Source of the DNA: Dehalococcoidia bacterium
GTDB lineage: Bacteria; Chloroflexota; Dehalococcoidia; Lucifugimonadales; UBA3495
Direction of reading: 5' to 3'
Length of the DNA: 64,000 nucleotides
NCBI GenBank assembly: GCA_965203195.1
Contig: OZ241860.1
Span: 1,794,334 to 1,858,333 of the forward strand
The position numbers and the translations under genes were made by a program. Positions 3,424 to 23,638 of this stretch are shown here, one piece after another; the first letter of the stretch is position 1, and each line of letters starts with the position of its first letter. Below the pieces are notes generated by a model, which saw only the letters and a program-made list of their open reading frames with translations, searched no databases and was not told the origin of the DNA.

Positions 3424-3528
3424 GGGGTGCTCCCGGTCGGGTCGGGCTATTGTATCACTCCCACAGGCCCCGGCGGTAGCGGCGACCCGATGGCAGAATG
3501 ACGCTGCCGCTCGGTTGGGTGCTACGGG

Positions 3529-6201: not shown

Positions 6202-6384
6202 TGAAGCCTCCTTGATTGTCTTGGCTTATTCCGATTGCGCGGCTTCGTAAGGGGAGGGAGGAATTTGGTGTCGTTCAGTGGCTTTGGCCAGCAGGCTGGC
6301 GCGTCCAGGGGGGCCCTGTAATGGGCTTCCGTTGAATTGCACGAGAGGTGCGCCTAGCGCGGGCGAGCGTTCGGCTGAGTACCG

Positions 6385-6858
6385 CTACCGGGTTCTGATT
6401 AGTAGTTTGATGGCCAGCTGTTTCCTTTCGTCAGGGGTGGCTTGGTTGAATTGGATGATCGCTGCTTCGGCCCGTAGGATCCACGTATCCGTTTCCGACG
6501 TGGTGAAATCCTTGTCGGGCGCATAATCGGCCAAATGCCGTTGGCTTTGCAGTTCCGAGAACGTGTCGGCAAAACGCCGGATTTGAGGCGGCAGCTGCCG
6601 TTTATTCTCGTTCATCCTGTTTTTGGCCGGCTGGTGGTCGATAGCCCGGTAAACGTGAACCCAGGCGGGTTCGTTGTTCTGGTTGCGGGGACCGGCCAGA
6701 CATTCGGCATTGCTGTGGGCCAAGGTGTGAAACATGGCGTAGTACGCGGTGCTGACGGCCCGCTTGAGTGCGGCTTGCGTGGGCTGTCTGTTGCCATCCG
6801 GGGTAGCCAGCCTGCGTGCGGCGGCGATCAGGTCTTCCCAGTTCACTGGTTTTTTCAC
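6385..6858 (-). CDS. HEPN-domain protein
   Basis: 157 aa with 'LKRAVSTAYYAMFHTLAHS' and 'QSQRHLADY', the classical HEPN helix pattern and R..ADY motif. Confidence 0.55.
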   Translation of the reverse strand: MKKPVNWEDLIAAARRLATPDGNRQPTQAALKRAVSTAYYAMFHTLAHSNAECLAGPRNQNNEPAWVHVYRAIDHQPAKNRMNENKRQLPPQIRRFADTFSELQSQRHLADYAPDKDFTTSETDTWILRAEAAIIQFNQATPDERKQLAIKLLIRTR

Positions 6859-6868
6859 CTCTTGGTAG

Positions 6869-7171
6869 CTAGCGTTGGCGGGCCTGCTCCCATTCGTGGT
6901 TCGGTATGTAGCCGATGGATGGCGCGTGGTCTACGCCGTTGTCCAGGAGCTGCGGGCTGATGTTGTGATAAACGGCGTTCAGCACCTCGGGGTTGAGTGC
7001 CTCGCGTTGGCCTTCGTAGATGACGGATACGTCCAGGAACTCCTCATCGTCTTGGCCGAACCGGGGGGATGACAGGACTTTGACGATACGCACTTGGCCG
7101 GTCAGTTCTTCGTTCAGGTAAGACCTGATGATGTCCTCGGCGGCGCTTTGTGCCGTGGGGCTGATTGGCAT
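6869..7171 (-). CDS. small protein upstream of the HEPN gene (possible degenerate MNT-like partner)
   Basis: ATG at 7171 preceded by 'aggagg'; 100 aa; 10-nt gap to the HEPN gene. 'VKVLSSPRFGQDDEEFLDVSVIYEG' loosely resembles a degraded 'GS...DxD' strand-turn. Confidence 0.4.
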   Translation of the reverse strand: MPISPTAQSAAEDIIRSYLNEELTGQVRIVKVLSSPRFGQDDEEFLDVSVIYEGQREALNPEVLNAVYHNISPQLLDNGVDHAPSIGYIPNHEWEQARQR

Positions 7172-7433
7172 ACTGCCTCCTGGTTTGTCGGGGGTGCTTC
7201 CTCCGATCTCTGGTGGTGGATGAATTGGCCCTGCGTCCGGGGGAATGCACAGGGATATGCTGGTGCGTGACTTGGCCGGCGGGGAGCCGTGGCCTTGATG
7301 GCCGGATGGCAAGCGGTGTTTGGTGGCAGTAGTGGGCCAGCCTGTGGCGGCGTGGTGTTGCGTTGGCGCGCCGGTGCGGGTTGCGGAAAAGGTACGCTTT
7401 CGGCAATCAGCTGTCAAGTCGGGGTAGCGTTTC

Positions 7434-8516
7434 GGTAGCGTTTCGTTTTAGGTGGTTTGGTTGATCAGGCCCTGCTCTTGCAGCAACGCCAGCAGGTTGT
7501 GCGCCGTCCACACCGTCCCCAACTTCTCCCGCCGCCGCAACTCCCGATTGTGCCGCTCCAAGCGCGACGTCGTCCGATGCGCCGCCTGCCCCGTCGCCAG
7601 ATGGCGCAGCCCTTTGGACAACGCTTTCTCGCACCAGTAACGCGCTACCCCATCCGTCGCCCGCATAATTCGCCGCGCCCATGCCCGACCTTCCGCCAGA
7701 CTGCCCGCATTCAACAACCGCCGCGCCGCCGCAAAACCCGCTACCCCAATGTTCCGCCGATACTCTCGCAGCAGGTGAAACGCGCACAGCTGATGCGGCG
7801 CTTCCACGCCATAAACCAGCTCAATCCCCGCCGCGATGGCCCCATCCCCATCGCTGACCAAATGCTGCGGATGCTGCGCCCCCTGCTGCCAGGCCAAGTC
7901 AATCACCTCGGCCCAAGGGCCAAAAGCCCACAGGGCTGTTCCCGCAGCAGCGTTGCGGATTACCTTCAATTCAGTACGTCCGCTACGGGTTCGCGTCCAC
8001 AGGCCATCCAGTTCCAGCGTTCCGTCCGGCGGCAATTGCGGCGCCGTCAAAGGCGCCTTCCGCAGCCACTGGCAAACCGTACTCTTGACGCAGCCCACCC
8101 AGTTTCCGGCGCGAGCGTAGCTCAATCCCCGCGCGGCCAGACTGATGGCGATGTCACGGTTTTTTTGGAAAACCGCTGGTGGCGCATTTCATCGCCCAGC
8201 AGCGTCATGCCGCCGGCCATACGCCGACACTGCCCGCAGCGGAACACCGGGATTTGCAGGCGGACTTCGCCGTAACTGGTGGCAATGGCGCGGGCATAAC
8301 GGTGGTGGCGATGCATGGCCAAACGGCAATGGTCGCAAAGGGGCTGGTAATCGTCCAGGGCTTGTTGGAGGGCGGTTTGGAGTTGGGCGGGGATTTGGCG
8401 TTCCAGTTGGGTTTCCAAGTGGTCCAGCAGTCCCATAGCGGCGTATCTCCGGCGGGGGCGGGGCGGGCATTGTACCTCCCATTTTATAACCAAACCACCT
8501 AAAACGAAACGCTACC
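7434..8516 (-). mobile_element. compact IS element (IS1-like organisation), apparently intact
   Basis: Perfect 27-bp terminal inverted repeats: 'ggtagcgtttcgttttaggtggtttgg' at 7434-7460 and its reverse complement at 8490-8516. It is flanked by a 9-bp direct repeat 'tagcgtttc' (7425-7433 and 8517-8525). Confidence 0.8.
7448..8493 (-). CDS. IS transposase, two frames joined by a putative programmed -1 frameshift
   Basis: OrfA (8493->8122) has a CxxC...CxxC zinc finger ('CDHC...CGQC') and contains the slippery run A7 ('tcc aaa aaa acc', 8160-8166). OrfB (8125->7448) lies in the -1 frame and carries 'HRTTSRLERHNRELRRREK'. Confidence 0.7.
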
Positions 8517-8627
8517 TAGCGTTTCCAATTAGGTGGTTTGGCTATCCGCCGTCATTCCAGCGCAAGCCGGAATCTGGCGTCGCCGGAGACCAGGCGCCGA
8601 CCAAACCACCTGAAAAGAAACGCTACC
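8517..8627. mobile_element. MITE-like non-autonomous derivative of the adjacent IS (its left IR is split by the IS insertion)
   Basis: 'tagcgtttccaattaggtggtttgg' (8517-8541) and 'ccaaaccacctgaaaagaaacgctacc' (8601-8627) are IR variants of the IS ends, enclosing ~60 bp with no ORF. Confidence 0.6.
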
Positions 8628-8716
8628 CACGTCGGCTGTCGGGGAATCCGGGATTGAGCCGTTGCCGGTGTTCCGGGTCATCGATAATCATACCTTGGCT
8701 CTGTAATCTGTAATAT

Positions 8717-8746
8717 GGGGGCACCGGGCTTTTAGCCGGTGCCCCC
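8717..8746 (-). terminator. GC-rich hairpin downstream of the 8809-9475 genes (possible terminator)
   Basis: 11-bp perfect stem 'gggggcaccgg'/'ccggtgccccc' with an 8-nt loop. There is no clear U-tract on either strand. Confidence 0.3.
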
Positions 8747-8808
8747 ATGCCACTTGTCCGCGCGTCCCGGGAAGGTTGCGGGGATCGCCTGTATGCCTTG
8801 ACCCGCGA

Positions 8809-8994
8809 CTACTGCTCGGCCTTGGCGGGTAAGGGTTTGTTGATGGGAGTGCCCCCCGGGGGGTTCCCGGGAGCCCAGGTTACTTGCGATGCGGGGTTCG
8901 GTCGGGGAGCGTTTTGCCCGTGAGTCAAAATGACGGAGTTGGACTCGGGCTTGGTCTCCGCGGCATTATTCGCCGGCTTGGCCTTGTTCGTCAT
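8809..8994 (-). CDS. hypothetical small protein
   Basis: 61-aa ORF that is Pro/Asn/Lys-rich, with no recognisable motif. Coding status is uncertain. Confidence 0.2.
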   Translation of the reverse strand: MTNKAKPANNAAETKPESNSVILTHGQNAPRPNPASQVTWAPGNPPGGTPINKPLPAKAEQ

Positions 8995-9475
8995 GCGGTG
9001 TACCTCCTGTGGTGAGCGCGTCGAAGCTCAAGTAGTCGTAAGCCATCCAGGCAAAATCGGTTTCGTCCTTGTGAACAGCCGTGAAGATGCGAATGCCTGA
9101 TGCGGCCCGGTCGATGATGAATTCGAAAGTTACGGGATGGCGTTCGTCGGGTTCAATAGCAAGTTCGCGTTGCAACCACGGCCTGATGATTTCGCCGAGG
9201 TTCCACCAGGCATGGTCGTAGGCATCCGTTGGGTTGTCCTCGATGCGTTCCCGGTACATGGCGATGACGGTTTCATCATCCATAGGGCTGGTTTGCTGTA
9301 GTAGGCATACCGCCCGATGGAGTCGTACCAGTACCTTGGAGTTGTTGTGCAACGTCGCTTTGACGGCAATCGGCCGGTAGCTTTCCCCTAGGTAGGGATT
9401 TCTAAAAGTCGAAACCGCCGGAACTGCCGTGACGGATTTCGGAATCCGGGGATTCGCCGGCCGCGGCTCTGGCAA
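8966..9475 (-). CDS. hypothetical protein
   Basis: ORF with a plausible globular C-terminal ~105 aa (from the internal Met at 9283: 'MDDETVIAMYRERIEDNPTDAYDHAWWNLGEIIRPW...'). No motif is recognised and the true start is unclear. Confidence 0.35.
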   Translation of the reverse strand: MPEPRPANPRIPKSVTAVPAVSTFRNPYLGESYRPIAVKATLHNNSKVLVRLHRAVCLLQQTSPMDDETVIAMYRERIEDNPTDAYDHAWWNLGEIIRPWLQRELAIEPDERHPVTFEFIIDRAASGIRIFTAVHKDETDFAWMAYDYLSFDALTTGGTPHDEQGQAGE

Positions 9476-9751
9476 GCAATCTATGGAAGCAAGGGACCAG
9501 GGGCATTGCCTGGCGGTTATTCAGGCCGGCCGGCATTGGACTGGTGCGGGGCGGTGCGATGTCGGCCGCGTCGTGCGGGATGGCCAGCCCCGTGCCAAAA
9601 TGATTTTGGGAGCGCCCCGATCCGCGGGCCGGGGCTGATTCGGTGCTGGGTCCGTGGGCTTTTCTTTTTGCACCGCGCGTCTTATCAGTGCGGCCCGGCT
9701 TATGCCGGCCATTTGGGTACGCGTTCAGTCCGGGTTCCAATCACTGCGTCA

Positions 9752-10081
9752 TTAAAATCCGAATTGGTCCAGTTCATCGGATTCCCGGTCGTGCCATTGC
9801 GCTTGGCGTTGATAGCTATCCGCGATGCGTTGCAACAAGGCCGCGGTATGCGGCCATTTGGAGGCCATCATGCTTGCCTGTTGCTGGTATTTATCAGCCA
9901 GCGCGCGCTCCTGATTGCCGCCAGCGAATATAGCGCGCGTGGTTACTCCCCTGAGGTTGTGTTTTCCGCTGACGAATCCGGTTCCAATGCGCTGTGCGCC
10001 GGTTGCGAGCAGCTGTTCCAGTAACTCGCGCACTGGCGCGCAAGGCCATAGGCCATCTTCGTCGTCAGGCGCGTTGATCAC
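9752..10081 (-). CDS. hypothetical protein, last gene of the Ubl/DUF2971 operon
   Basis: 109 aa, starting 18 nt after the stop of the DUF2971-type gene. It has a helical 'GGNQERALADKYQQQASMMASKWPHTAALLQRIADSYQRQAQWHDRE' segment. The family was not identified. Confidence 0.45.
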   Translation of the reverse strand: MINAPDDEDGLWPCAPVRELLEQLLATGAQRIGTGFVSGKHNLRGVTTRAIFAGGNQERALADKYQQQASMMASKWPHTAALLQRIADSYQRQAQWHDRESDELDQFGF

Positions 10082-10099: not shown

Positions 10100-11131
10100 C
10101 TATCGACTGTCGGATCCCCGGTAGGGGATTGTGGATGACCTGACCCATGTGTGTTGCAGTCCCGCTCTTTCGGCAAGGTTTGCGATGTGCTTTTGAGCAT
10201 CACTCTGGCGCCGGACCCGAGGCCCAACGATGATTCCGGATCCGGACCTGAAAATGCCGTCCTCATGGCTGGTGGACAGATGATTGTGCTTGTGGTAGGC
10301 GCGGAATTGCCCGTTCCTGTATTCCGTATGCTGATTCACCGTTCCGTTGTCGCCTTCGGGCAGGACGACGATCCTGGACTCTCTTTCGTAGTCGTAGGCT
10401 TCGCTCTTGTATAGGTAGCTGATCAGTCGCAACTGTTCCCGTATGACGCGCTTCGCTTCCTGCTCCGCCGCTTCGTTGCCCAGTTTCTGGATCGGCACCA
10501 GAATGCGTTGACAGTATTCCGCTATGATGGCGGCGGTTGCACGTGCCTCATCTTCACCGTACCGCACCTTGCGCAAATCGCTTTCAGGTATCGTCACAAC
10601 CAGCGATACGCCTTCTCCGTCGTTGCCGTAACTGCGCCAGAGGGGCAAGTTGTCGGCCGCTTTGCGTACGTCTCGGGGACCGCGTGGCGTGACAAAAGAT
10701 GCAATGTAGGCATAGTTTTCCTCGATGAATGGTCGCTGCGGCGGGAAAAATTCTCGTAGCGACTCTATCCTGTTCGGTCCGATCCTGGCTTCGTACAGGT
10801 ACAAGCCTTCACCCGGATCGTTGAACGCGTCGGATGCGTACATCCGAAGATGGGCGTATTTTTCCGCCGCGTCGTTGGTGTTCTCCAGCAGATGGATTGC
10901 GGTCTCTACTTTGGTGTAGTGGACGACTTGGAGGGTAGAGACAGATTCCTCGCCGGCCCGTATGTGCTTGGCGTCCATAATGTTGGACGCCACGTTGGCC
11001 GTTGCTTTCGCTATCGCAGGGTGGATTTCATTGGCGATGGCGCGAAGGTTGTAGCTGTAGGATGATTGGGTGATACGCGCTACGGCTTCTTCGAGCACCA
11101 TGATCTGCTGGTAGGTTTCGCTGAAGTCCAT
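10100..11131 (-). CDS. DUF2971-type protein (putative effector of the Ubl operon)
   Basis: Start taken at 'MDFSETYQQ' (11131), 28 nt after the E1 stop. 'LQVVHYTKVETAIHLLEN...LRMYASDAFNDPGEG' matches the DUF2971 'YHYT....L......NDP.E' signature, from memory of the family. Confidence 0.55.
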   Translation of the reverse strand: MDFSETYQQIMVLEEAVARITQSSYSYNLRAIANEIHPAIAKATANVASNIMDAKHIRAGEESVSTLQVVHYTKVETAIHLLENTNDAAEKYAHLRMYASDAFNDPGEGLYLYEARIGPNRIESLREFFPPQRPFIEENYAYIASFVTPRGPRDVRKAADNLPLWRSYGNDGEGVSLVVTIPESDLRKVRYGEDEARATAAIIAEYCQRILVPIQKLGNEAAEQEAKRVIREQLRLISYLYKSEAYDYERESRIVVLPEGDNGTVNQHTEYRNGQFRAYHKHNHLSTSHEDGIFRSGSGIIVGPRVRRQSDAQKHIANLAERAGLQHTWVRSSTIPYRGSDSR

Positions 11132-11159
11132 TTGTCCGCTTCTCCTGGCGCTTCTGCGC

Positions 11160-12539
11160 TCACTTCTCGATGTAGGATGGCTTGACCCTGTCGCCGCCGG
11201 CTTTGCGCGCCGGGAACGGGCAGTAGTCTTGGCAGCGCTCATTGATTACGCGGGTCTGCCCGGTGATGAATTGGCAGTCCTGCTGTTTTACTTCAGGCCA
11301 CCAGTCCGGGCTGAGCAGATACCGCAACATCAAGTTGACGGCCATGCCCGCCACGCCCAGACTGAACGGGAACACATTCTGGCCTTCCGGCCGGCTTGCC
11401 TTGGGCAACGCGCTGATGTAGGAAGGATTGTCCAGAGAGCCGTCCAGCTCCGCGCTCACCATGCCTGTATTGTACTGTCCGTTGCAACGCAGGCACTGGT
11501 GATACGGAGTTACGATGTGCGCCCGCCAGTGGGCGTGGCTGAACTGTCCGTGCCGGTTCAGCGGGCCGACGCTCACGCCGCAATCGATGACGGGCACCAG
11601 GTGGGCGTTGGCGATGTGATTCAGAACGTCCCGGGCTACGGGCCGGTCCACGCAACTGAAAATTATATCGCAGTCCAGCGCCGCTAGGTAGGCGTCATTG
11701 TCCTGTACCGGCAGAGGCAACGCGGTGATTTGGGGCCGGTCCGCGGTGGCGTGAAGTTCCATCCGGTCTTTCGCCAGTTCCACCTTCAGTCTGCCAACAT
11801 CGTTTGTAGTTCCGTAGAGCAGGCGGTCCAGGTTGTGCGTCTCCACGCGGTCCGGGTCGATGAGAGTCAGGTCGCGCACTCCGATGCGCGCCATGGCTTC
11901 AGCGACGATGCAACCGACGCTGCCTAGTCCTGCGATGCCGACGCGTAGCCGCGAGATGTCGTTCTGCGCCTGGTCGCCCCAGCTGTCATGGGTTCGCTTC
12001 AGAACCTCGCGCCGGGGGCTTGGCCTGGCTCGCCGGTCGTTGAAGCGTAGCACGTAGGATTTGGGGCCGGCGATGCGCACCTTGTCGCACCAGTCCGGCC
12101 GGCTTTGCCCCTTGCGCCAGAAGCGGGCGCTCCAGTAACCGTCATTGCCGACGGTCAGCCCAACCAGGGGCAACCCGGCGGCGCCGGCGACCGGGGCCAG
12201 AACTTTCTGTTCGGCCCTGGCGTCGGCAACACTCAACGGTTGCCATCCGTGGTGTGGATGACTGTGCATGAACGCCAGGCCGGAGCCGCGCCGACAGGCT
12301 TCCGCAACGGCTCTGGCCGCGTAGCGGGATTGGAAGCTGGCGTTGCCGTGTAGGTCGCGCTCGCCGGGTTCCGGTGTGATGATCCGGTCGATCAGAGCGG
12401 TGACGCGGCGCGCTCCGGTAGAGGGTTGCCACAGGGCAAAGCAGAGGTCCTCCTGCCGCTCTCCTTTTCGGATGTGTTGTAGGAGGTGGTCGGAAGCGGT
12501 TTCGTTGGCCTCTGCGGTGAGGGCGGCTTCGTATTTCAT
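11160..12539 (-). CDS. fused JAB/JAMM metallopeptidase and ThiF/E1-like adenylyltransferase
   Basis: N-terminal JAMM 'EDLCFAL...HSHPHHGWQPLSVAD'. The central E1 Rossmann is 'VGIAGLGSVGCIVAEAMARIGVRDLTLIDPDRVETHNLDRL', with Cys pairs 'CLRC' and 'CQDYC'. The start ATG at 12539 forms an ATGA overlap with the upstream stop. Confidence 0.8.
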   Translation of the reverse strand: MKYEAALTAEANETASDHLLQHIRKGERQEDLCFALWQPSTGARRVTALIDRIITPEPGERDLHGNASFQSRYAARAVAEACRRGSGLAFMHSHPHHGWQPLSVADARAEQKVLAPVAGAAGLPLVGLTVGNDGYWSARFWRKGQSRPDWCDKVRIAGPKSYVLRFNDRRARPSPRREVLKRTHDSWGDQAQNDISRLRVGIAGLGSVGCIVAEAMARIGVRDLTLIDPDRVETHNLDRLLYGTTNDVGRLKVELAKDRMELHATADRPQITALPLPVQDNDAYLAALDCDIIFSCVDRPVARDVLNHIANAHLVPVIDCGVSVGPLNRHGQFSHAHWRAHIVTPYHQCLRCNGQYNTGMVSAELDGSLDNPSYISALPKASRPEGQNVFPFSLGVAGMAVNLMLRYLLSPDWWPEVKQQDCQFITGQTRVINERCQDYCPFPARKAGGDRVKPSYIEK

Positions 12540-12907
12540 ACATCCTTCCAGATGCGGCCGATGTGTTCCTTCACGTACACGCTCATGTGTTTGGTGGGGC
12601 GGCGGTCCCAGAAATCGCTTGGCGGCCGGCTCATTGCCAGCCATTGTCGTCCTTCCGTATCCTGGTAGATTTCCTTGGCGCCGCCGCGTCCGTCGTCAAG
12701 CGGCGGAGATATGTGCACCCAGTGCGGCGGATATTCCGGGTACTCGCCGTCGGGGTTGCTGACGCCGATGTGGACGGTTTTGCCGGCGTGGGAACCGCAC
12801 TCCATTTGATATTCGAAAGCGATGACCGTGCCCTGATTCCATTCAAAGACCTGTGTGGGGTAGCCGGAACCTTCCAGTTCCATGCGGATGCGCTCCGTTT
12901 GGTTCAT
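12536..12907 (-). CDS. E2/UBC-fold or RWD/UEV-like protein (prokaryotic E2 family-E-like)
   Basis: 123 aa with 'GEYPEYPPHWVHISPPL...GRQWLAMSRPPSDFW'. The only Cys is C37 ('MECGSHAG'), not at the expected catalytic position. Confidence 0.5.
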   Translation of the reverse strand: MNQTERIRMELEGSGYPTQVFEWNQGTVIAFEYQMECGSHAGKTVHIGVSNPDGEYPEYPPHWVHISPPLDDGRGGAKEIYQDTEGRQWLAMSRPPSDFWDRRPTKHMSVYVKEHIGRIWKDV

Positions 12908-12978
12908 GGTGAAATAACCTCTTTGCGCGCGACCGCCAGCAGTTACGCGCTGGCGGTCACGGCTACGCAGTCTTGGCG

Positions 12979-13236
12979 TCAGGCTACTTGGGTCGGCGTG
13001 TTGGGAAGGGAGATGAAAACGTTGTCCTTCTCCAGGTCAACCTGTTCGTTCCGGCCGTATTCCCTGTCATCGACAAGGATGCTTTTCAGGATGTACTCAT
13101 CCGGCGCGCCTGTGATTGCATTGTGCTTTTCGGCCAGCTCCAGGATGTCGTGGGCTACCACGAAACGGAACGACATCTCCATCTCGTCCCCGTTGACCTT
13201 CAGCGTGTAGGTGGTGCCGTCGTTCTGAGCAGTCAT
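12979..13236 (-). CDS. single-domain ubiquitin-like beta-grasp protein (multiubiquitin-family-like)
   Basis: ATG at 13236 preceded by 'aaggagagg'; 85 aa. 'TYTLKVNGDEMEMSF..VVAHDILELA...EYILKS...EQVDLEKDNVFISLPNTPT' fits the multiubiquitin repeat pattern. The C-terminus '...TQVA' lacks Gly. Confidence 0.55.
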   Translation of the reverse strand: MTAQNDGTTYTLKVNGDEMEMSFRFVVAHDILELAEKHNAITGAPDEYILKSILVDDREYGRNEQVDLEKDNVFISLPNTPTQVA

Positions 13237-13549
13237 GGCAATTCCTCTCCTTCTTCGGTTGAGGCGTGGCGGCAATTGGCGAGGTTTCCGGTTCTCGTCG
13301 TAAGAATTTGGCATTCTGACGGTTCTGTCCGATACGTTCATTTTCCCTGTCGACGCAAGGGCAGGGTTGCCCCCAGCAGGCGTAACCAGACGCCATAAAC
13401 AACATCCATGTTACCACCCGATTTTGCCGAAGGGTAGGTATCGTCATATGATTAGGGTTATTCAAAAGTGGGCTACTTCCGCTTGGCGGCGGGATTGCGG
13501 TTCCGCCTGCTGCTTGCCTCCCTCGGGTGCTTGGGGCGACCCGTGGCGG

Positions 13550-16500
13550 TTAGGCTGCCGGCGTGCTGTGCCGCGGCAGTATAGCACGCGCCTGCTCGTC
13601 AATCAAGCCGCTTATGCCGTTGGCGCGTAGCTCCCGGCGGATGGCTTCGCATAGCTTGATTTGCCCCGTGTCGGACGGCAGCCGGTCCCGCACGCCGGCA
13701 GCCGCCTGTTCCGCAGCGGCGCACAGCGACGCCAGCTCCCGGTGCCGCCCGTTCCCCCCATCATAGCGCGGGATGGGCACGGCGCGCCAGATGTGGTGGG
13801 CAAAATGACGGTCGGATTTGCGGCTGTCCTGGTACGCAGGTTGCAGGCAATCCGCGTTAAGCACGGCGACGAGGTACGCTGCTTCATCTGGAGTCAGTAC
13901 CGCAAGGTGGAACGTGGAGTTGTCGGCAATGTGATTTGCCGTCGTCCGCGCCGCGCGCAATGTCTGCCCGGCCAAGTTGTAAATCACTTTGGTAGGCGCA
14001 TTGCCGGCCCGGTTGGGGCCAATCTGGGCGAGTAGCCCGCCCTGGTGGTTAATACGGTCCCAGAGGGTTTGGGGAGTGGCCTCCCCTTTGCCTCTATTAG
14101 GCTGGTAGGCCGTCATTTCCGCCCAGCTCCAGTATTCATCCGCATCCCGCCGGGCGTCCAAATCCCGTTGGGTTGTTAAGGGAATGATCACTTTGCTGAC
14201 TTCCCCTCGCAGCGTGTAGTTCAGCAGGTCTTGCGAATAGACGGCATCGCTGATGTAGCGTTCCGGCACACTGCCGGCCGTGCCATTGAATTGGGGCCAA
14301 GCGGCGTGCCGGGCGTCGTCGGTTATGAAACTGACACGACGTCCTTTCCGGCCAGTGACTTTGGCGATTTTGACCAGGCTGTGGGGGAACAGCGTAGCCC
14401 CGTTGCGGAAATCAGGTTTGCCGCCGGTGAAGTATTCCGACCGTTCCGCTATGAAGCCTGCCTGTTTGACTACGATTGCCGAATTGGCCTGCGCCGTGGC
14501 GGCATCGTCGGCGCGGCGCACCCGCCGGCCGTCCTTATTTATCATTCTGGTCTGCGCCGGGCCGCCGGCGGGGGCCGTCCCCTGGATCAGGGCGCAGGAC
14601 TTGGCGCCGGTAAAGGGGGCGTCTTTCAGTTCGCCGAAGTCCAGAAACTCCGCGTTCCAGTCCTGGCTCTGTTCCCGCACCCGCTGCCAGTTGCTGCCCT
14701 TGATAGCGGCGCTGTTCAGCGCCCAGGCCACGCGGTTGTCGGCGTCGTTGCGCAGGTACATTTCGCGGCAGCGGATGACGAACAGGCCGCCGATGTCAAA
14801 GCCGGTGTTGGCCTTGCCGCCGGGCCACAGGTTCATATTGCCGATGAGCTGCTCCAGTTCCCGCTTGCGGCTCGCCACCTGGATATTGCTCATCCGCACC
14901 CAGGGCGGGTTGGCCAGGATGCGGTCCACCTTGCGCTCCTTGAGAGCGGCGGGGGATACGCTGTTGAAAATGTACCAGGCCCAGACGCTGTTGCCTTCCT
15001 CCTGGATAACTTCCCGCAGGGTTTCGTAGGTGCGGGCCAGGGTTTGGCGGTCGGATTCCAGCAGTCCGTCCAGGGCGTCGGAGGGCAGGGGTTGGTCCAG
15101 GTTGGCGGCGGCCACGAAGCGCTGCACCTTGGCGCCGAAGCCGGGGCGGGCCGCCCACTGGGTAGGTATTTGCAGATAGCGCCCGGCGCGGGATTCCAGG
15201 GTGTGGTAGGGCAGCCCGGCGGTGTTGGCCAGTTCCATACCCCGGTGGGTGTAGATCAGGGAATCGCCCTGGTAGATTTGCAGGGCTTCACTGCCGCCGG
15301 CCGGCTCGGCGGGCAGGGCGCGCATCAGGGTGGCGCGGCTGATTTCGGCGGCAATAGGGTGGATGTCAATGCCGTTGACCATCCGGGCAATGAAGTCGGC
15401 CTGCTCGGTGGGCGTGGCGCCGGCCTGTTGCAGGGCGGCGCTGTTGCGGATACGCAAGGCGGCATGATAGAGGAAGGTTCCCGACCCGCAGGCCGGATCC
15501 AGGATGCCGACGCCGGCCGGGGCGTCGCCGCTGTGCAGATAGCGGGCCACGGCCCGTTCCAGCCAGGCGTCGTCAATGATGCGGTCGGCCAGCATTCCGG
15601 CCAGCCAGTCGGGGGTGTAGTACTCGCCGAAGGCTTTGCGCTGGGCGGCGGGTATCAGCTCCTGGTAGATGTTGCGCAGCACATCCCGGGTGCGGGGACG
15701 CCAGTCGTAGGCATTGGCAGTGCGAAACACCTCCCGCGTCCAGTCCACGCCGGGCTGGTAGGTGGGGCCGTTTTCGTCCCGGTTTTGAGGCCAGGAGGCG
15801 AAGCCTTCGGCCATCACGCTGGCCGGGTCCTCGGGGCGTTCCCAGTCGCTCATGGTAGCGATGACGGCGCGGGCAATGGTGACCAGCAGGGTGTGGCTGA
15901 GGAACAGGTCGGTTTCCTCGTCCGCGCTTTCCGGGGCGCAGCCCGAGCCGCGCAGCATATCCAGCCAGAGTTCGCGCTTGGTCTGCGTGGCGGGTTCATC
16001 CTGCAACCCGGAGTAAAGGCGGCGCAATGGTTCCAGATGGGGCGTGAAAATGTCGGTGGGATTGGCGGGAATGACGGGCCGGGTTGCGGCGGCGTCGGCA
16101 AAGATTTGGTGTAGGGCTTCGTGGATGCTGCCCGTTTCCTGCGTCCGGGCGTAGATGTCGGCCAGCAGCTCCGGTGCGGTGCGCTGGGGCAGATCCCGGC
16201 TGACGATGATGCGGCGGAGTTCCGTCCGGTCGCCGCCGGCCGGGAGGGGCCACACGAACTCCAGCCGGTCGTTGGGGCCGTTGCTGAATGCCAGCAGGGG
16301 GTCGGTGCCGACGCGGTCGGTCACGGCCCGGGCTGCCGCTGCGGCGGCGCTTTTGTTGATGCGGGTTCGTGTGGGGTCGGGGAGGGCAATGTAGGCTGCG
16401 GCAACGCCGTCATAGTCGGCAATGTGGTGGGCATCGGCCGGCAGGTTGTCGTGGGCGGGCAGCGGTATAACGCCGTGGGCCGGTTCAAAGTCCAGAGTTT

Positions 16501-16825
16501 CGGCGAACAGGGTACGCAGCCGGTTGGCGCGCTGGCCGGCGTCGGCCGCGGCAAAGATGCCGGCAATGGCGATGGCGACGCGGGCGGCGTCGGTGTCATT
16601 GGCGGCCTGGTCTGCGGTCGGTTCCGGGCGCATTGCTTCCCAATCCTCCATTTCTTGCTGTAGATCCTGTAGTACGCTTTTCGCCGCGTCCAGTTTGACC
16701 TGGCTTATGGCCGGCGACTCTCCGGGGATGCGTTGGGCTTCGCCGCTTTCCATCAAGGCGACCAGGCGGGCGAACTGGCGCGCCCGCTCTTGCGTCACCC
16801 GGTACTCGTTTTCGTTGGCAATCAT
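13550..16825 (-). CDS. large N6-adenine DNA methyltransferase (Eco57I/PglX-like gamma-class)
   Basis: 1091 aa. SAM motif I 'GILDPACGSGTFLYHA', motif IV 'ILANPPWVRMS', 'EYYTPDWLA', and an N-terminal 'RLRTLFAETLDFEP' as in defence-type methylases. Confidence 0.8.
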   Translation of the reverse strand: MIANENEYRVTQERARQFARLVALMESGEAQRIPGESPAISQVKLDAAKSVLQDLQQEMEDWEAMRPEPTADQAANDTDAARVAIAIAGIFAAADAGQRANRLRTLFAETLDFEPAHGVIPLPAHDNLPADAHHIADYDGVAAAYIALPDPTRTRINKSAAAAAARAVTDRVGTDPLLAFSNGPNDRLEFVWPLPAGGDRTELRRIIVSRDLPQRTAPELLADIYARTQETGSIHEALHQIFADAAATRPVIPANPTDIFTPHLEPLRRLYSGLQDEPATQTKRELWLDMLRGSGCAPESADEETDLFLSHTLLVTIARAVIATMSDWERPEDPASVMAEGFASWPQNRDENGPTYQPGVDWTREVFRTANAYDWRPRTRDVLRNIYQELIPAAQRKAFGEYYTPDWLAGMLADRIIDDAWLERAVARYLHSGDAPAGVGILDPACGSGTFLYHAALRIRNSAALQQAGATPTEQADFIARMVNGIDIHPIAAEISRATLMRALPAEPAGGSEALQIYQGDSLIYTHRGMELANTAGLPYHTLESRAGRYLQIPTQWAARPGFGAKVQRFVAAANLDQPLPSDALDGLLESDRQTLARTYETLREVIQEEGNSVWAWYIFNSVSPAALKERKVDRILANPPWVRMSNIQVASRKRELEQLIGNMNLWPGGKANTGFDIGGLFVIRCREMYLRNDADNRVAWALNSAAIKGSNWQRVREQSQDWNAEFLDFGELKDAPFTGAKSCALIQGTAPAGGPAQTRMINKDGRRVRRADDAATAQANSAIVVKQAGFIAERSEYFTGGKPDFRNGATLFPHSLVKIAKVTGRKGRRVSFITDDARHAAWPQFNGTAGSVPERYISDAVYSQDLLNYTLRGEVSKVIIPLTTQRDLDARRDADEYWSWAEMTAYQPNRGKGEATPQTLWDRINHQGGLLAQIGPNRAGNAPTKVIYNLAGQTLRAARTTANHIADNSTFHLAVLTPDEAAYLVAVLNADCLQPAYQDSRKSDRHFAHHIWRAVPIPRYDGGNGRHRELASLCAAAEQAAAGVRDRLPSDTGQIKLCEAIRRELRANGISGLIDEQARAILPRHSTPAA

Positions 16826-17259
16826 GGCAGTGTCCTCAAATCGATGGCGACGATTCCTTTGGGGTTGACCTGGCGGTCGGTTTGGAAAAATTCGAAAAAA
16901 GTGCGCCCCTGTTTATCGGCAACAGCGTCCGCAGGGAATAGTTCGCCACCGTAGGTTTGCTTCTGCGCCTGGCGTGAATTGCTGAAGTCCAGCAGCGCGG
17001 GATGCAGCAGGTCAAGGTTCACGCCGTAAATTTCCCAGGCGGCGTCGAAGTCGCCAGGGTGTTCTTTATCGGTTACGAAACTGCCATTGAGATAAACTCT
17101 GGCGCATCCGGCCTGCTTCAGGTTTTGCAGGGCTTGGAACAGGCCGTCCAACAGCGCCTGCCGATGCGGGTTGGTTCCAAAGCGATGAGCTACTTCCTGC
17201 CAGGTGGCTTCGTGAATGCCGGGCGGCAGGTTGCCGTTGGGGAGAAAGCGTGGAATCAT
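16822..17259 (-). CDS. minimal nucleotidyltransferase (MNT/DUF6932-like)
   Basis: 145 aa with 'RVYLNGSFVTDKEHPGDFDAAW' (GS...DxD). Its stop overlaps the methyltransferase start (ATGA at 16822-16825). Confidence 0.5.
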   Translation of the reverse strand: MIPRFLPNGNLPPGIHEATWQEVAHRFGTNPHRQALLDGLFQALQNLKQAGCARVYLNGSFVTDKEHPGDFDAAWEIYGVNLDLLHPALLDFSNSRQAQKQTYGGELFPADAVADKQGRTFFEFFQTDRQVNPKGIVAIDLRTLP

Positions 17260-17308
17260 CCGAACATCCCGGCGGCGGGATTAGGCGATTATAGGCAGGG
17301 CCAGCAGG

Positions 17309-20300
17309 CTAGGCAAGCCCGTCGGAGCAGACGATGCGGACGGGAGAGGGCAGTTCAGCGGCGGCGGTTTCAGTTTCACGGTTAGGACGCAGGGCGTACA
17401 ATTCGGCCAGTCGTTCGAGGCGTCGGGTCAGTTCCCGGCCGGCGATATGTTCCCGGCGCATGGCGGCAATGGCGGCGTCCACCGTAGCGGAGTAATCCCG
17501 GTTGGCGTAGATGCGGCGCATTCGCTCCACCGTGCGACGGTAGCTGGCGTCGTTGCCGGCCTCGCCCCGGGCCCGGTTCAGCTCCCGGTTGATGTAACGC
17601 TGGTTTTCGGTGCGCCGGGGCGCGTCAATCAACCGGGCGGGCGGAATGCTGCGGAAGGCGTGGTAGGCGGCCATCACCCGGTCGTTGGTGTTGGCCGGCA
17701 GCCGCCGGGGCGGCGTGTGCGGGTCGCACTGGGCCAGGGCCAGGAACTCGTCCGGCTCAACTGGCGCGGGTTGCAGGTCGTCGCCCACGGCGTAGCAGGC
17801 GTGTTCCGGGCCGCGCGCCAGCATCACTATGGTCTTGCCCTTGTGCGGGCCTTGCGGCGCGATAACGGCGGCGCGGATGCCGTCGGGCAGGCGGGATGCG
17901 TGGTCGTACAGATCGGGGTCGTCATCTCTGATGCGTTGCAGCAGGGCGATGTTGTTCTGCGTGGCGGCGCCGGCGTCCAGCAGGTCGTCGGTTGCGTCGT
18001 CCGGCAGCTCGCCCTGGGCATAGATGCGGTACATCGCCTCGGTGTTGAGTTTTTCGTCCGGGGACAGCACCGGACTGTCGGCGCCGATGACATTGTGGAA
18101 AGACCGGATGCGCGCGCCGATGCGGTCGGTCAGGGACAGGGTTTCGTCAATGCCGGCGTCGGGCCACATATTGTGCAGGTACACCGTGTCGGCCACAGCG
18201 CCGATGCGGTCCACGCGCCCGAAGCGCTGGATGAGCTTGACCGGGTTCCAGTGCAAATCGTAGTTGACGACCCGGTAGCAGTCTTGCAGGTTCTGGCCTT
18301 CGGACGCTACGTCGGTGGCGAGCAGGATGCGGATGGGGCGCTCCAGGATGTCGCGGCGGCTGGCCTGGTTGGACGCCGGCGAAAAGCGGGCAATGATGTC
18401 GGCCTGGCGGTCGTTGTTGCGGCTGGTCAGCATGGCGATTTCCGAGTTGTCGCCGCCGGGGTTCAGCTCCCGATACAGGTATTCCACCGTGTCGCGGGAT
18501 TCGGAAAACACCAGCGCCTTTTCGTTCCGCGCCGCCAGCGTGTCCAGAAAGGCGCGCAGTCGGGACAGCTTGTCATCGTCCGGGGCGCCAATGTCGTCGA
18601 TGCTGTCGCGGATGGCGGCCAGCAGATCGCAGTCGGACTTCAGGTCAGCCCGCCAGCGTCCGACGTTGAAATGACTCGCCGGGTGGGCGTTGTGGCGACC
18701 GCTCTCCGCCTCGTCGTCAGCCAGGTCGTCCAGCATCCGGTCGGGATCGAAGTCAGGGTCGTTGAGCAGGCGGGTCGCCAGCCGGCCGGTGGGAACATAG
18801 CCGTTCTCCAGCGCTTTGCGGAAATTTTCGTTGCTCTTGATCAGGGTGTCCAGCGTGCAACGAAAGGCGTGGACGCTGGACTCCAGCCGTTTCAGCGTCA
18901 GGGTTTTGATAAGGCCGGCGACGCGGCCCCGGCTACGCTTGAGGGCGTCGTAGCGCCGGTCGTCCCGATGGGCCGGCTTCAGGTAGTCCAGCGGCTGGTA
19001 GCGGGCGCCTTTGTGCCGCTTCAGCAATTTAAACAGGGCTGTGGAGCCGCCGGCGGCCGCATAAACCTGGTCCAGCCGGTAGGCCAGGTTCTCCAGTTGC
19101 GGAGTCGGAAACTTGACGGGCTGGCCGTTGACTTCGGCGCTGTCGCCGTAGATTTCAACGATGTCGCGGCGCCGGCGGCGGATAAAGATGGGCGTCAGCG
19201 CCCGCTGGATGGCGCGGCGGGCTGCTTCGCTGTCGGCGGCGTCTTTGCTGTGGGCGCGGAAGTAGCGTTGCAGGTTCGGCGGGTCAATGGGCAGGCCGTG
19301 GTCGTCATCGTCCATAAAGGCGCTGACCTGGTGGTAGATGTCCATAGACGACAGGTTCTGCGGCGTGGCGCTGAGCAGAATGACCTTGTGGTCGCCGTCC
19401 TGCAAGTAGTTTTTGACGCCGCGATAGCGGTTGTTGGAGCTGTTGCGGAAATGATGCGCTTCGTCAATCAGCACCGGGCCGTTGTGGGGGTATCGCTGCG
19501 ACAAGGACTGCCCGCGGACGGATATGTCGTTGAAAACCCAGTCCTCCTGTTCCTCGTCCCACTCCGCTTCGGCCGGCGCGGCGATGTTGCTTTGGGAAAC
19601 GATGTCCGCGCCCAGCTGGTAGATCTGGTTCACGTCTTGCCACATTGGAACCAGGGGCGCCGGGCAGATGATGAGCGGGTTGCCGGCCCTGGATTCAATG
19701 GACTTGAGTTGCTCCAGAATCTTGGCGCCCACGAAAGTTTTGCCCAGGCCGACCACGTCGCCGATGTAGCAGCCGCCGTGTTCGGCGATGATGTCCAGGC
19801 CGCGCCGCACGGCGTCCAGCTGGAAGTTGGCCAGTTGTGGACCGCGGCCGCCAGCCTCGATAATCGCGTCGCCGGTTTTGCCGTGGTGGAGTTCGTAGAG
19901 GGCTTTGAGATAAACATCGTAGGGCCGGGTTTCGGCTACCGCCCAGGAACGGTCCAGCTCCGCCAGGGCCAGCTCGGTGATGTCGGCGGCGTCCTGCCAG
20001 AGGTTTTCGAACCAGGCGTCCAGGTCGGCGACTTCGCGCCCGTCAAAGCGGACATTCAGCTCGGTGTTCCCCGCGAACCCGGCCAGGGAGAAGTTGGACG
20101 AGCCGACGATGGCCGAGCTCTGGACGGCCACGCGGTCGTAGTGGCAGATGTAGGCTTTGGCGTGCAGCCTCTCTTTGAGGTAGGCGCGGATTTCCAGCCG
20201 GCCGGCGGCGATGAGGTCGCGGATGCGGGTTATGCCCTGCTGTTCGCCGTCGATTTGCGGGGAGCTGCCGGCGGAGTTGCCTACCTGCCGGGCGGCTTCA

Positions 20301-20587
20301 CCCCGGAGCCGGTCGCTCTCGGAGCGGCGGATGGGGGTATGCGCCGCCAGATATTCGCCCAGGGTGTCGTGGTGGTTGATGGCGGCGGCTACGTCGTCCA
20401 GGACTGGCCGGTCGGTGCGTCCCACCAGGATGCGGATTTCAGCGACGCCGGATAGTTCGTGGGCCACTGCGGTGAAGCCGGACATAAAGAAATAGCCCAC
20501 GGCAATATCGGCCGACCTGGCCTCAGTGAGGATGGCCTTGAAATCCTCGGTGAAGGTGGGAACGCTGGTGGCGTGGATGATGTTCAT
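17309..20587 (-). CDS. PLD-family nuclease domain fused to an SNF2-family helicase/ATPase
   Basis: N-terminal HKD motif 'LHAKAYICH...IVGSSNFSLAG'. SNF2 motifs are 'GDVVGLGKTFVG', 'LIDEAHHFRN', 'LLSATPQN' and 'ATDVASEGQNLQ...NYDLHWNPVKLIQRFGRVDRIG'. Confidence 0.85.
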   Translation of the reverse strand: MNIIHATSVPTFTEDFKAILTEARSADIAVGYFFMSGFTAVAHELSGVAEIRILVGRTDRPVLDDVAAAINHHDTLGEYLAAHTPIRRSESDRLRGEAARQVGNSAGSSPQIDGEQQGITRIRDLIAAGRLEIRAYLKERLHAKAYICHYDRVAVQSSAIVGSSNFSLAGFAGNTELNVRFDGREVADLDAWFENLWQDAADITELALAELDRSWAVAETRPYDVYLKALYELHHGKTGDAIIEAGGRGPQLANFQLDAVRRGLDIIAEHGGCYIGDVVGLGKTFVGAKILEQLKSIESRAGNPLIICPAPLVPMWQDVNQIYQLGADIVSQSNIAAPAEAEWDEEQEDWVFNDISVRGQSLSQRYPHNGPVLIDEAHHFRNSSNNRYRGVKNYLQDGDHKVILLSATPQNLSSMDIYHQVSAFMDDDDHGLPIDPPNLQRYFRAHSKDAADSEAARRAIQRALTPIFIRRRRRDIVEIYGDSAEVNGQPVKFPTPQLENLAYRLDQVYAAAGGSTALFKLLKRHKGARYQPLDYLKPAHRDDRRYDALKRSRGRVAGLIKTLTLKRLESSVHAFRCTLDTLIKSNENFRKALENGYVPTGRLATRLLNDPDFDPDRMLDDLADDEAESGRHNAHPASHFNVGRWRADLKSDCDLLAAIRDSIDDIGAPDDDKLSRLRAFLDTLAARNEKALVFSESRDTVEYLYRELNPGGDNSEIAMLTSRNNDRQADIIARFSPASNQASRRDILERPIRILLATDVASEGQNLQDCYRVVNYDLHWNPVKLIQRFGRVDRIGAVADTVYLHNMWPDAGIDETLSLTDRIGARIRSFHNVIGADSPVLSPDEKLNTEAMYRIYAQGELPDDATDDLLDAGAATQNNIALLQRIRDDDPDLYDHASRLPDGIRAAVIAPQGPHKGKTIVMLARGPEHACYAVGDDLQPAPVEPDEFLALAQCDPHTPPRRLPANTNDRVMAAYHAFRSIPPARLIDAPRRTENQRYINRELNRARGEAGNDASYRRTVERMRRIYANRDYSATVDAAIAAMRREHIAGRELTRRLERLAELYALRPNRETETAAAELPSPVRIVCSDGLA

Positions 20588-21730: not shown

Positions 21731-22828
21731 GTGGCCTTGGAAGGCCCGCGCCGCGTCGGGCGCAGGGTATGTCCCCAGCGGCCCATGCTGCGGGCGTACC
21801 TGGCCGGCCGCCACCTCGGCATCGGTAGCCTGTCGGCTCTGATTGTCCGTTTGAACAATGACCCGGCGTTGCGCAGCGTGGCCGGCTTCACCGACAGCCT
21901 GCCGTCCTATGCGACCTTCTGGCGCGCGTTCGACCTGCTGGCCGGGGTGCCGGAACTGATTGCCCGCTGTTGCGATAACCTCCTGGACCGGCTTGCGGAA
22001 CTGGCGCCGGACCTGGGGTGGGAAGTGGCAGTGGACGCCACGACCATAGAGGCTTACGCCAATCCGAACCGGAAGCATACGGTGCGCAACCCGGACGGGC
22101 CGGCTGACCCGGACGCTACGTGGACGAAAAAGAACTCGGCCCGGGATCCTTCGAAGCAGGAATGGGTTTTCGGCTATAAAGCCCATGTGCTCGCCGATGC
22201 CAATCACGACGTGCCGCTGGGCATGGTCGTTACTACGGCCAGTCGGAACGATTCGCCGTTTTTGCCGTCGTTGCTTGCGAAATTGGAGACCGGTCATTCC
22301 TGGTTCAGCCTGGCGGCGAGCGCGGCGATCATTGCCGACCGGGGCTATGATTCCAGACGCAATAACGAGTTCGTGCATCGGAACGGCGGGGTTCCGGTTA
22401 TACACAAGCGCGGGTTGCCGGAGGGCAAGCTGCATGACGGCATCTACACTGCGGATAGCGTGCCGACCTGTTTGGGACAACGGGAGATGGCGTATGTCCG
22501 CACTGATCCCGATGCCGGGCATCATTTGTACCGCTGCCCAGCGGGCGGATGCGCCCGGCGTAATACAGCGCACGCTGTTTCCGCCTGCGATGACGAGTCT
22601 TGGGAGAACCCGGAGGATAACATCAGGCTGTTCGGCGGGGGCATCCGGCGGGGTAGCGCGGAGTGGAAGGCGATGGACGCCAAGCGGTGGAACGTGGAGC
22701 AGGTGTCCAGCAGGTGGAAGAAGCAGGGGCGTTTGGAGCGGCACTGCTATTTTGGTTTGCGGCGGGTATCGGCGCACGCGCGGTTGCAGATGCTGATGTC
22801 GCTGGCCGCGCAGCCGGATCAATTCCTA
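21731..22828 (+). pseudogene. IS4/IS5-superfamily DDE transposase gene, 3' end disrupted by a nested IS
   Basis: InsH-N-like 'RPMLRAYLAGRHLGIGSLSALIVRLNNDPALRSVAGF'. DDE region 'AVDATTIEAYAN...FGYKAHVLAD...IIADRGYDS'. The reading frame runs straight into the IS inserted at 22829. Confidence 0.65.
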
Positions 22829-23638
22829 GGTCGTGTTGACATTTTGGTGTTATCATTGCGGCATGGCAAACTTGGAACTGACATCCTACCAATGGGACAA
22901 AATCCTCACTTTCCTCCGCAGCCGCTCCGACCTCTACGTCGGCTGTGAAACCGATTGCCGACGCTTCATCACCGCCGTACTTTGGATTGCCCGCGCCGGC
23001 GCCCCCTGGCGAATGCTGCCTGCGGAATACGGCAAATGGAACTCCATCTACCGACGCTACGCCAACTGGTGCCACCGAGGCATCTGGACCGCGCTCCACC
23101 AACGCCTGGCCGATGACCCGGACACCGAATACCTCATCATTGACAGCACCATCGTCCGCGCCCATCCTGACGCCGCCGGCGCCCCTAAAAAGGGGGCGGT
23201 CAAGACGCTCAAGCGTTAGGGCGCAGCCGGGGCGGGTTCAGTACCAAAGTGCACATCACAGTGGACGGACTGGGCAATCCTTTGCGGTTCATCCTGACGG
23301 GAGGCCAGGAGAACGACATCACCCAGGCCGAAGCGTTGCTGTCCGGCTACGCCGGCGAGTATGTGATTGCGGACAAGGGGTACGATGCCCAGTGGTTGCG
23401 GGAGTGGATTGCGGAGTTGGGGATGACGCCGGTGATACCGGGCCGTTCCAACCGGAAGGTAGTGGTGGTGTATGACCCGGACCTGTACGGCGAGCGTCAT
23501 TTGGTGGAGTGCTTTATTGGCAAGGTGAAGCGCTACCGGCGGGTGTTCACCCGGTTTGAGAAATTGAGCCGGCGCTACTTGGGGTTTTGGCATTTTGCGG
23601 CGGCCCTCATCTGGCTACGCTGAAATGTCAACACGGCC
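22829..23638 (+). mobile_element. IS5-family (IS427/IS1031-group-like) insertion sequence, apparently intact
   Basis: 16-bp IRs with one mismatch: 'ggtcgtgttgacattt' at 22829 versus the reverse complement of 23623-23638, 'ggccgtgttgacattt'. It is flanked by TA/TA within a reconstructed CTAG target. Confidence 0.8.
22863..23623 (+). CDS. IS5-family transposase with a programmed -1 frameshift
   Basis: OrfA is 'MANLELTSYQWDKILTFL...'. The slippery 'aaaaag' at 23187-23192 would, after a -1 shift, read '...KKGGGQDAQALGRSRGGFSTKVH...', continuing into OrfB ('IADKGYDAQWLRE...'). Confidence 0.8.

Follow-up and report, generated by a model that had tools for sequence, protein, structure and literature searches.

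A motor–methylase gene pair, probably a two-gene restriction-modification-like module, with an optional toxin–antitoxin-like cassette in a Dehalococcoidia bacterium

The window analysed here is a stretch of 64,000 nucleotides from the genome of a Dehalococcoidia bacterium (contig OZ241860.1, positions 1,794,334 to 1,858,333), and the element under study is a set of three co-directional genes on its minus strand. The first gene encodes a nuclease domain of the HKD, or phospholipase D (PLD), type fused to an SNF2 ATPase, and is referred to as the motor; the second encodes a small protein of the DUF6932 family, and the third a gamma-class N6-adenine methylase. These three open reading frames (ORFs) had been described earlier from the letters alone (the sequence-only reading), and their coordinates and lengths were confirmed exactly, all three carrying the motifs described. 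We consider it likely that the locus holds a two-gene, ATP-dependent restriction-modification-like module, consisting of motor and methylase, with an optional toxin–antitoxin-like cassette between the two genes. Observed at the locus are its gene content and motifs, the conservation of the pair, a facultative foreign cassette, an in-frame fusion and purifying selection. The features are as follows.

17309-20587, minus strand: motor, HKD (PLD) nuclease/SNF2 ATPase fusion, 1092 amino acids (ORF list and Pfam)
19997-20440, minus strand: PLD domain of the motor, about residues 50-197 (Pfam PLDc_2, 1.3e-10)
18056-19852, minus strand: SNF2 motor domain, about residues 246-844 (Pfam and PADLOC)
17288-17316, minus strand: promoter-like site TTGCCT-17-TATAAT (consensus scan, 10/12 matches)
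16822-17259, minus strand: DUF6932 gene, 145 amino acids (Pfam PF22014, PADLOC PDC-M63A)
13550-16825, minus strand: gamma-class methylase, 1091 amino acids (motif order, PADLOC, Foldseek)
16628-16825, minus strand: N-module (helical hairpin), methylase residues 1-66 (homology to free-standing DUF6932 partners)
16076-16600, minus strand: methylase N-domain, residues 76-250 (175 residues), common to motor-linked methylases
13550-16075, minus strand: methylase body, comprising a helical domain, the gamma N6-adenine core, a target-recognition domain (TRD) and a C-terminal helical domain
13856-14425, minus strand: the TRD within the methylase body, about residues 801-990, variable

The region has a G+C content of 62-65%, and long ORFs on the opposite strand, such as 17447-20455 (plus strand), were rejected as antisense shadows of this high-G+C region. 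The source genome (3.78 Mb, 97% complete) was the basis of the whole-genome family searches.

The conserved pair of motor and methylase

Loci with relatives of the motor (given L numbers where they need to be told apart) were sampled from Dehalococcoidia and other Chloroflexota genomes and metagenomes. The close loci number 14 including the window, and motor identity, measured for 11 of the others, is 71-95%. The methylase lies directly 3' of the motor in all 14, and the flanking genes vary between close loci. Since the flanks differ from locus to locus, the motor–methylase pair moves as a unit, and by these gene-order comparisons the conserved unit is two genes, motor and methylase. Among six distant plasmid loci inspected, motor and methylase are adjacent in three (Halorussus, Rhodococcus and Microcystis), and in the Thermococcus locus other genes are inserted between the two. 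The pairing is widespread in bacteria and archaea, and is plasmid-borne. The methylase of L049 (11763-15100 of that locus) shows frameshifts in its C-terminal third; the contig is a long-read assembly at 5x coverage, and the frameshifts are probably an assembly error rather than decay.

The sequence-only reading had proposed an N-terminal HKD/PLD domain and a complete SNF2 ATPase in the 1092-residue protein, and both the Pfam architecture and the invariant motifs agree with this. Pfam places SNF2-rel_dom/ResIII at residues 255-476 and Helicase_C at residues 673-796 (2.1e-17), and the best PADLOC model is 'HKD+Snf2' (PDLC01075, 2.8e-50, residues 13-844). The chain contains a single HKD-type motif, LHAKAY..GSSN. 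Across 38 homologues of 49-92% identity, the invariant residues include H142, K144 and G162-N165 of the PLD domain, G280-T284 (Walker A) and D375-H378 (DEAH) of the ATPase, and Q787, R788, G790 and R791 of motif VI. No recognisable target-recognition or modified-base reader domain was found in the motor with Pfam. The ratio of nonsynonymous to synonymous substitution rates (dN/dS) of the motor was 0.16-0.23. The C-terminal tail R..CSDGL (17312-17335, minus strand) is likewise invariant in the 38 homologues, down to 49% identity, and may be a docking peptide.

In the methylase, motif I (DPACGSG, residues 443-449) precedes motif IV (NPPW, residues 639-642) and the TRD is C-terminal. This is the gamma order, and Foldseek agrees, so that the proposed gamma-class N6-adenine methylase with NPPW stands. 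The best PADLOC model is REase_MTase_IIG (4.8e-37). Foldseek with the structure model (predicted local distance difference test score, pLDDT, 85) retrieved CamA, PglX/BrxX, MmeI, DrdV, LlaBIII and LlaGI at E-values of about 1e-13 (3e-13 for MmeI, 5HR4; 9e-13 for DrdV, 7LO5), and a sequence search of the PDB gave no match for the methylase. The N-terminus had been called PglX-like, and this was not upheld: PglX profiles match only the catalytic core, residues 380-526. The TRD is 52% identical to that of L001, compared with 85% for the core, and nucleotide homology to L001 breaks at 13888-14363. Divergence of the TRD so much faster than that of the core is expected when specificity changes, as in specificity-switching restriction-modification enzymes. 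Because the catalytic and ATPase residues are invariant, dN/dS is 0.14-0.23 and the TRD outpaces the core, both motor and methylase look active.

The N-terminal part of the methylase sets the motor-linked enzymes apart. Database relatives with 44-48% identity over about residues 245-1087 carry an N-terminal PD-(D/E)xK motif, 'aDlYLP..IETK'; the two inspected stand alone among housekeeping genes, and such stand-alone relatives look like complete Type IIG enzymes. A MAFFT alignment of the window clade has AAA or AVA at the ETK positions and no conserved D. The N-domain of the window methylase is 36-41% identical to the methylase N-termini in L005, L006, L013 and the L007 genome; these methylases accompany the more distant motors, and their bodies are only about 27% identical. 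It is rare: a search of 1.84 billion proteins gave 108 representatives. In almost every one of these the match starts among the first 30 or so residues, and the full-length proteins have about 950-1080 amino acids. We read the N-domain as the part that would couple the methylase to the motor.

The DUF6932 gene and the fused hairpin

Pfam DUF6932 (PF22014) matches the 145-residue protein over the full-length model at 1.5e-41 (142.6 bits against a cut-off of 27), and PADLOC assigns it to PDC-M63A at 6.6e-14. The GS...DxD motif claimed for this gene was found: in 42 homologues G59, D70 and D72 never vary, nor do K100, E106 and K134, and S60 is conserved to at least 90%. The AlphaFold2 model has a pLDDT of 96. 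Its Foldseek search against the PDB gave nothing significant (best E-value 0.44), the top of the list being mostly minimal nucleotidyltransferase (MNT) antitoxins, Pol-beta and AadA. The protein is predicted to be minimal nucleotidyltransferase-like, an assignment that rests mainly on the invariant motif because the Foldseek matches are non-significant. A PDB sequence search gave no match for it, and DUF6932 was not found in the literature search. Its dN/dS against L050 is 0.22. Genes of the DUF6932 family occur in 31 of 301 sampled Chloroflexota genomes. The source genome itself has a second one, of 196 amino acids (L016, 3655962-3656453), the partner of which differs, being a protein of 319 amino acids with no family match.

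The sequence-only reading had taken the first 65 or so residues of the methylase for a separate helical module of the antitoxin type, and this is strongly supported, as the module is homologous to the stand-alone DUF6932 partner. In the AlphaFold2 model, residues 5-27 and 38-65 form a two-helix hairpin, which is followed by a disordered linker at residues 67-75 (pLDDT below 50); Tyr8 and Thr11 of the hairpin are nearly invariant. A free-standing partner of 78 amino acids in L058 is 58% identical to window methylase residues 1-66, and the closest free-standing partners are the complete proteins of 76-78 amino acids in L058 and L061, from the genome that also holds L002. In many loci the ORF 3' of DUF6932 starts with MI.NE..Y..T......F, often with a start/stop overlap of like kind. 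A profile made from the fused N-modules matches the ORF directly 3' of DUF6932 in 10 of 34 loci (E-values 1e-31 to 3.5e-4 among 1589 ORFs). The partners in L020 and L021 run on into an Xre-type helix-turn-helix (HTH_3, 2e-11), and some others extend into longer C-terminal regions. Searches of Pfam and PADLOC with the 77-residue hairpin alone gave no family, PDC-M63B matches neither the hairpin nor the free-standing partners although PDC-M63A matches the DUF6932 protein, and the L020 partner has no match in a PDB sequence search. In the window, the hairpin has no stop codon of its own and is in frame with the methylase. Six loci, and further database entries besides, keep the fusion as a conserved open frame, and the dN/dS of the hairpin is 0.17-0.22. 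By these comparisons, the hairpin is descended from a DUF6932 partner (antitoxin-like) gene fused in frame to the methylase, and the fusion is under purifying selection.

Two kinds of known pair were compared with this arrangement. Like PDC-M63AB/HigA-type pairs, the cassette has a DUF6932 protein matching PDC-M63A, and the usual partner of such proteins is small, helical, translationally coupled and often of the Xre-type HTH kind; here, however, the partner has neither an HTH nor a stop codon of its own and is the N-terminus of a 1091-residue methylase. Membership of the MNT–HEPN toxin–antitoxin family was ruled out, since hairpin residues 1-66 contain no histidine for an Rx4-6H motif and no HEPN match was found; the structural likeness of DUF6932 to MNT proteins is also non-significant.

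The DUF6932 stop overlaps the methylase start in ATGA at 16822-16825, as had been claimed, and this overlap is kept in all three other loci that bear DUF6932 (L049, L050 and L065). Upstream of DUF6932 and the methylase lies the promoter-like site, the -35 element of which overlaps the final codons of the motor together with its stop. Its position is kept in L049 (identical) and in L050 (TACAAT), and as a consensus match it is a putative promoter.

The overlap had suggested that the small gene is an integral part of the operon, an idea that was not borne out: the sequence-only reading had itself named homologous loci without the MNT-like gene as its refutation, and ten of the 14 close loci are of this kind. 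DUF6932 is present in only four of the 14 close loci (the window and the three just named), and the same cassette is found free-standing in unrelated contexts. Two loci, L001 and L066, have the fused hairpin without DUF6932. The remaining eight have neither, and their methylase starts at the equivalent of about residue 75 of the window protein. Both L004 and L055, whose motors are 95% identical to that of the window, lack the cassette, and the L004 methylase begins LTTANDTDAVRV. In the motor tree, the window pairs with L055 (cassette absent), and L049 (cassette present) is sister to both, which suggests that the cassette was lost or exchanged by recombination inside the clade. The L001 genome has no DUF6932 anywhere despite its fused hairpin; the few 3'-end codons of DUF6932 left there ('KTLP*') hint at a recent loss. 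Together, DUF6932 and methylase residues 1-66 make up an inserted toxin–antitoxin-like cassette of foreign origin, which is facultative, an optional add-on of one subclade that is dispensable for the core system. The cassette is more than a fresh hitch-hiker because it is stably kept in one subclade, translationally coupled and under purifying selection.

Small cassettes also lie between methylase and motor elsewhere. On the Thermococcus profundus plasmid NZ_CP014863 (L067), positions 3265-4894 hold an AbiEi-like gene and an AbiEii nucleotidyltransferase toxin; on the Microcystis plasmid NZ_CP025929 (L064), positions 6244-7882 hold a nucleotidyltransferase and a SLATT gene; and in L006, positions 7862-9802 hold an ORF with a weak, sub-threshold RelB-like match. 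In these unrelated hosts, the position may be only a recurrent landing site, or there may be a functional association.

The best-surviving alternative, which we regard as unlikely, is an integrated three-component system in which DUF6932 works in the module, either as a guard or addiction partner that the hairpin keeps inactive, or by nucleotidylating the hairpin and so adjusting methylation. Retention of the cassette in four diverged loci (motor or methylase 83-100% identical), the conserved ATGA overlap with a dN/dS of about 0.2 in the cassette, the physical fusion of the partner hairpin to the methylase in six loci and the recurrence of nucleotidyltransferase-type Abi or toxin–antitoxin cassettes in Thermococcus and Microcystis would all fit such a system. 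It is opposed by the ten close loci that do without DUF6932, two of them at 95% motor identity, by L001, where the hairpin is fused and DUF6932 is nowhere in the genome, and by the frequency of the cassette as an independent unit. Moreover, the related candidate PDC-M63AB had no defence phenotype in E. coli NILS69 (bioRxiv 10.1101/2024.12.20.629700).

A more specific proposal, doubtful and to be given still less weight, is that the hairpin tethers a DUF6932 toxin to the methylase, which would then be the antitoxin, or that DUF6932 nucleotidylates Tyr8/Thr11 to switch methylation. If the tether were real, loss, proteolysis or phage inhibition of the methylase would free DUF6932 and lead to abortive infection or post-segregational killing; this would be a guard in the style of PrrC/EcoprrI built by gene fusion, and the Thermococcus and Microcystis cassettes at the same position would be signs of a second-line strategy common to this kind of restriction-modification system. 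The PrrC/EcoprrI system, in which the gene of an accessory toxic enzyme lies between Type Ic restriction-modification genes, is a parallel only where the guard idea is concerned. In contrast to the predicted nucleotidyltransferase-like DUF6932 protein, PrrC is an anticodon nuclease; the link here could be physical, through the fused hairpin.

Relation to known restriction systems

The locus had been described as restriction-modification-like and as fitting no canonical class, and the comparison with DISARM and BREX agrees. DUF1998/MZB (PF09369) and PglZ (PF08665) have no match in the whole 3.78-Mb genome, whereas the control genomes matched for both, and no DrmB/DrmA-type genes were seen in related loci. 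Against NCBIfam DISARM_DrmD the motor scores 160 bits (cut-off 610), and against BREX_2_MTaseX the methylase scores 41 bits (cut-off 400). Class 1 DISARM has a separate PLD protein, DrmC, whereas the PLD domain here is fused to the motor. PglX of BREX has a fold similar to that of the methylase according to Foldseek, but the family-model score is far below the cut-off, and the PADLOC PglX model covers core residues 382-504 only. DISARM was therefore excluded by the missing DUF1998 gene and the sub-threshold DrmD score, and BREX by the missing PglZ gene and the sub-threshold PglX score.

Fusions of HKD and superfamily 2 (SF2) domains have long been recognised as restriction components (PMC2292703, PMC10853773), and the effector of the 'Type-2 BREX-related' system is an N-terminal HKD domain fused to a Swi2/Snf2 helicase (PMC12839542). 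This system, formerly Gao_RL/Gao_29 and now named MANTIS, consists of MtsA-MtsD (bioRxiv 10.64898/2026.09.23.753747). In the same study, cryo-EM showed MtsD to be a dimer of PLD-SF2 chains that has a single PLD active site, the methylase was found to be loaded through a DUF499 AAA+ ATPase (MtsA) together with DUF3780 (MtsB), and self-marking was by adenine methylation at short asymmetric sites. The motor shares the domain plan of MtsD, an N-terminal HKD followed by SF2/SNF2. The differences lie in the other components. MtsC is an alpha-class methylase with a central TRD, whereas the methylase here is gamma-class and MmeI/PglX-like, with a C-terminal TRD; and of the loader genes required in MANTIS, DUF499 does not adjoin the pair and DUF3780 was not found beside it. 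DUF499 (PF04465) has no match in the 14 close loci and three in the source genome, at 0.13, 2.50 and 2.81 Mb, compared with 1.79-1.86 Mb for the window, thus at least 0.64 Mb away. These distant matches (132407-133600, 2498627-2499205 and 2808378-2808881) may belong to separate BREX-related systems. For DUF3780 (PF12635) there was no match in the genome, but the control genomes gave none either, and Pfam found none among the called genes of related loci. A canonical MANTIS/Type-2 BREX-related system was rejected because the pair has no DUF499 neighbour and its methylase is of another class. Given these two differences, and the search for DUF3780 that gave no match, the locus is best described as a distinct two-gene variant with an MtsD-like motor and a Type IIG-like methylase.

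It could be argued that the locus is a degenerate MANTIS/Type-2 BREX-related system that has lost MtsA (DUF499) and MtsB (DUF3780) and is no longer a functional unit. The MtsD architecture of the motor, its best PADLOC model ('HKD+Snf2') and the published descriptions of MANTIS/Type-2 BREX-related systems with such an effector (PMC12839542; bioRxiv 10.64898/2026.09.23.753747) speak for this, and yet neither DUF499 nor DUF3780 was found beside the pair in any of the 14 close loci, the genomic DUF499 matches are far off, the methylase differs from MtsC in class and TRD position, and the motor and methylase genes are intact and under purifying selection. We therefore regard degeneration as very improbable. 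Equally improbable is a modification-dependent (Type IV, SauUSI-like) or a repair or remodelling function for a motor that lies next to the methylase by coincidence, as could be supposed from the distant motor-family members without an adjacent methylase and from the structural resemblance of MtsD to SauUSI (bioRxiv 10.64898/2026.09.23.753747), given that motor and methylase are neighbours in all 14 close loci and again in other phyla, that the motor has no recognisable target-recognition or modified-base reader domain and that the methylases travelling with it share a special N-domain.

Among single-chain enzymes, those of Type IIG/IIL (MmeI, DrdV) have the same body plan as the methylase, with a helical domain, gamma core and C-terminal TRD in one chain. 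Unlike in these enzymes, the N-terminal D..ExK nuclease residues are missing here, and cleavage is presumably carried out by the separate ATP-driven PLD motor. The closest functional analogues are the Type ISP enzymes (LlaGI, LlaBIII), in which nuclease, ATP motor, gamma methylase and TRD are likewise combined. Asymmetric sites are hemimethylated by Type ISP enzymes, which cut once they have translocated and collided. In them a single chain carries the Mrr-type nuclease and a motor like that of Type I enzymes, whereas here there are two genes, a PLD nuclease and an SNF2 motor. By analogy, the module would be functionally nearest to a split Type ISP enzyme.

Proposed mechanism and neighbouring genes

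In the favoured two-gene reading, the methylase would read a short asymmetric site and methylate one adenine (hemimethylation), thus marking host DNA. At an unmethylated site, it would recruit or license the motor via the N-domain, and the motor would track along DNA with ATP and cut as a dimer with one shared PLD active site. Dimeric cleavage is suggested because there is one HKD motif per chain, as in MtsD, SauUSI and BfiI. Cleavage would be supplied by the HKD-SNF2 protein, not by an N-terminal nuclease as in the Type IIG relatives, while any toxicity or neutralisation would take place within the cassette.

Several points weigh against this reading. The coupling of motor and methylase is not universal in the wider family, because some distant members have no methylase nearby: in a distant motor subfamily (46-48% identity), L007, L008 and L011 have none within 10 kb, and the L007 motor is flanked by purL and prpD, with a matching methylase about 14 kb away in the same genome. 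The N-domain may be either a decayed nuclease domain or a replacement for one: the MAFFT alignment hinted at decay, but hhalign of the N-domain against the nuclease domain of the relatives gave this no support, with a probability of 1%. The nucleotidyltransferase fold of the DUF6932 protein is deduced from motifs together with non-significant Foldseek matches. Finally, MANTIS restriction needs two extra loading proteins and its cleavage has not been reconstituted in vitro, so that a mechanism with two proteins is only a proposal.

As far as the literature was searched, a PLD-SNF2 motor paired with a Type IIG-like methylase has neither been named nor tested. An MtsD-like effector with a self-contained methylase and no DUF499/DUF3780 loader would be a minimal system in which to study how such motors are brought to unmethylated sites and what permits a single-HKD dimer to cut. 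The window also offers a natural case in which a restriction-modification methylase carries an antitoxin-like gene fused to its start, so that a guard or addiction link between restriction-modification and a toxin–antitoxin pair can be put to a direct test. With defence-finder tools, the methylase will probably be listed as a solitary 'Type IIG' enzyme and the two-gene unit missed.

On the 3' side of the methylase, an intact gene of 1261-1262 codons begins 37 nucleotides downstream in L050 (15062-18847) and L065 (4564-8352); the encoded protein has no Pfam, PADLOC or PDB match. In the window, a ubiquitin-like (Bub-type) operon at about 10100-13465 has replaced the first 1150 or so codons of this gene, and an ORF of 109 amino acids (9752-10081, minus strand) is its 3' remnant, 73-77% identical over the last 107 codons. 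As such a remnant, the 109-residue ORF probably does not belong to the Bub-type operon. Just upstream of the module is an IS5-family transposase gene (DDE_Tnp_1, DUF772; 21731-22948, plus strand), and sequence resembling an insertion sequence, 83-85% identical to this element, lies upstream of the module in L003 and L004.

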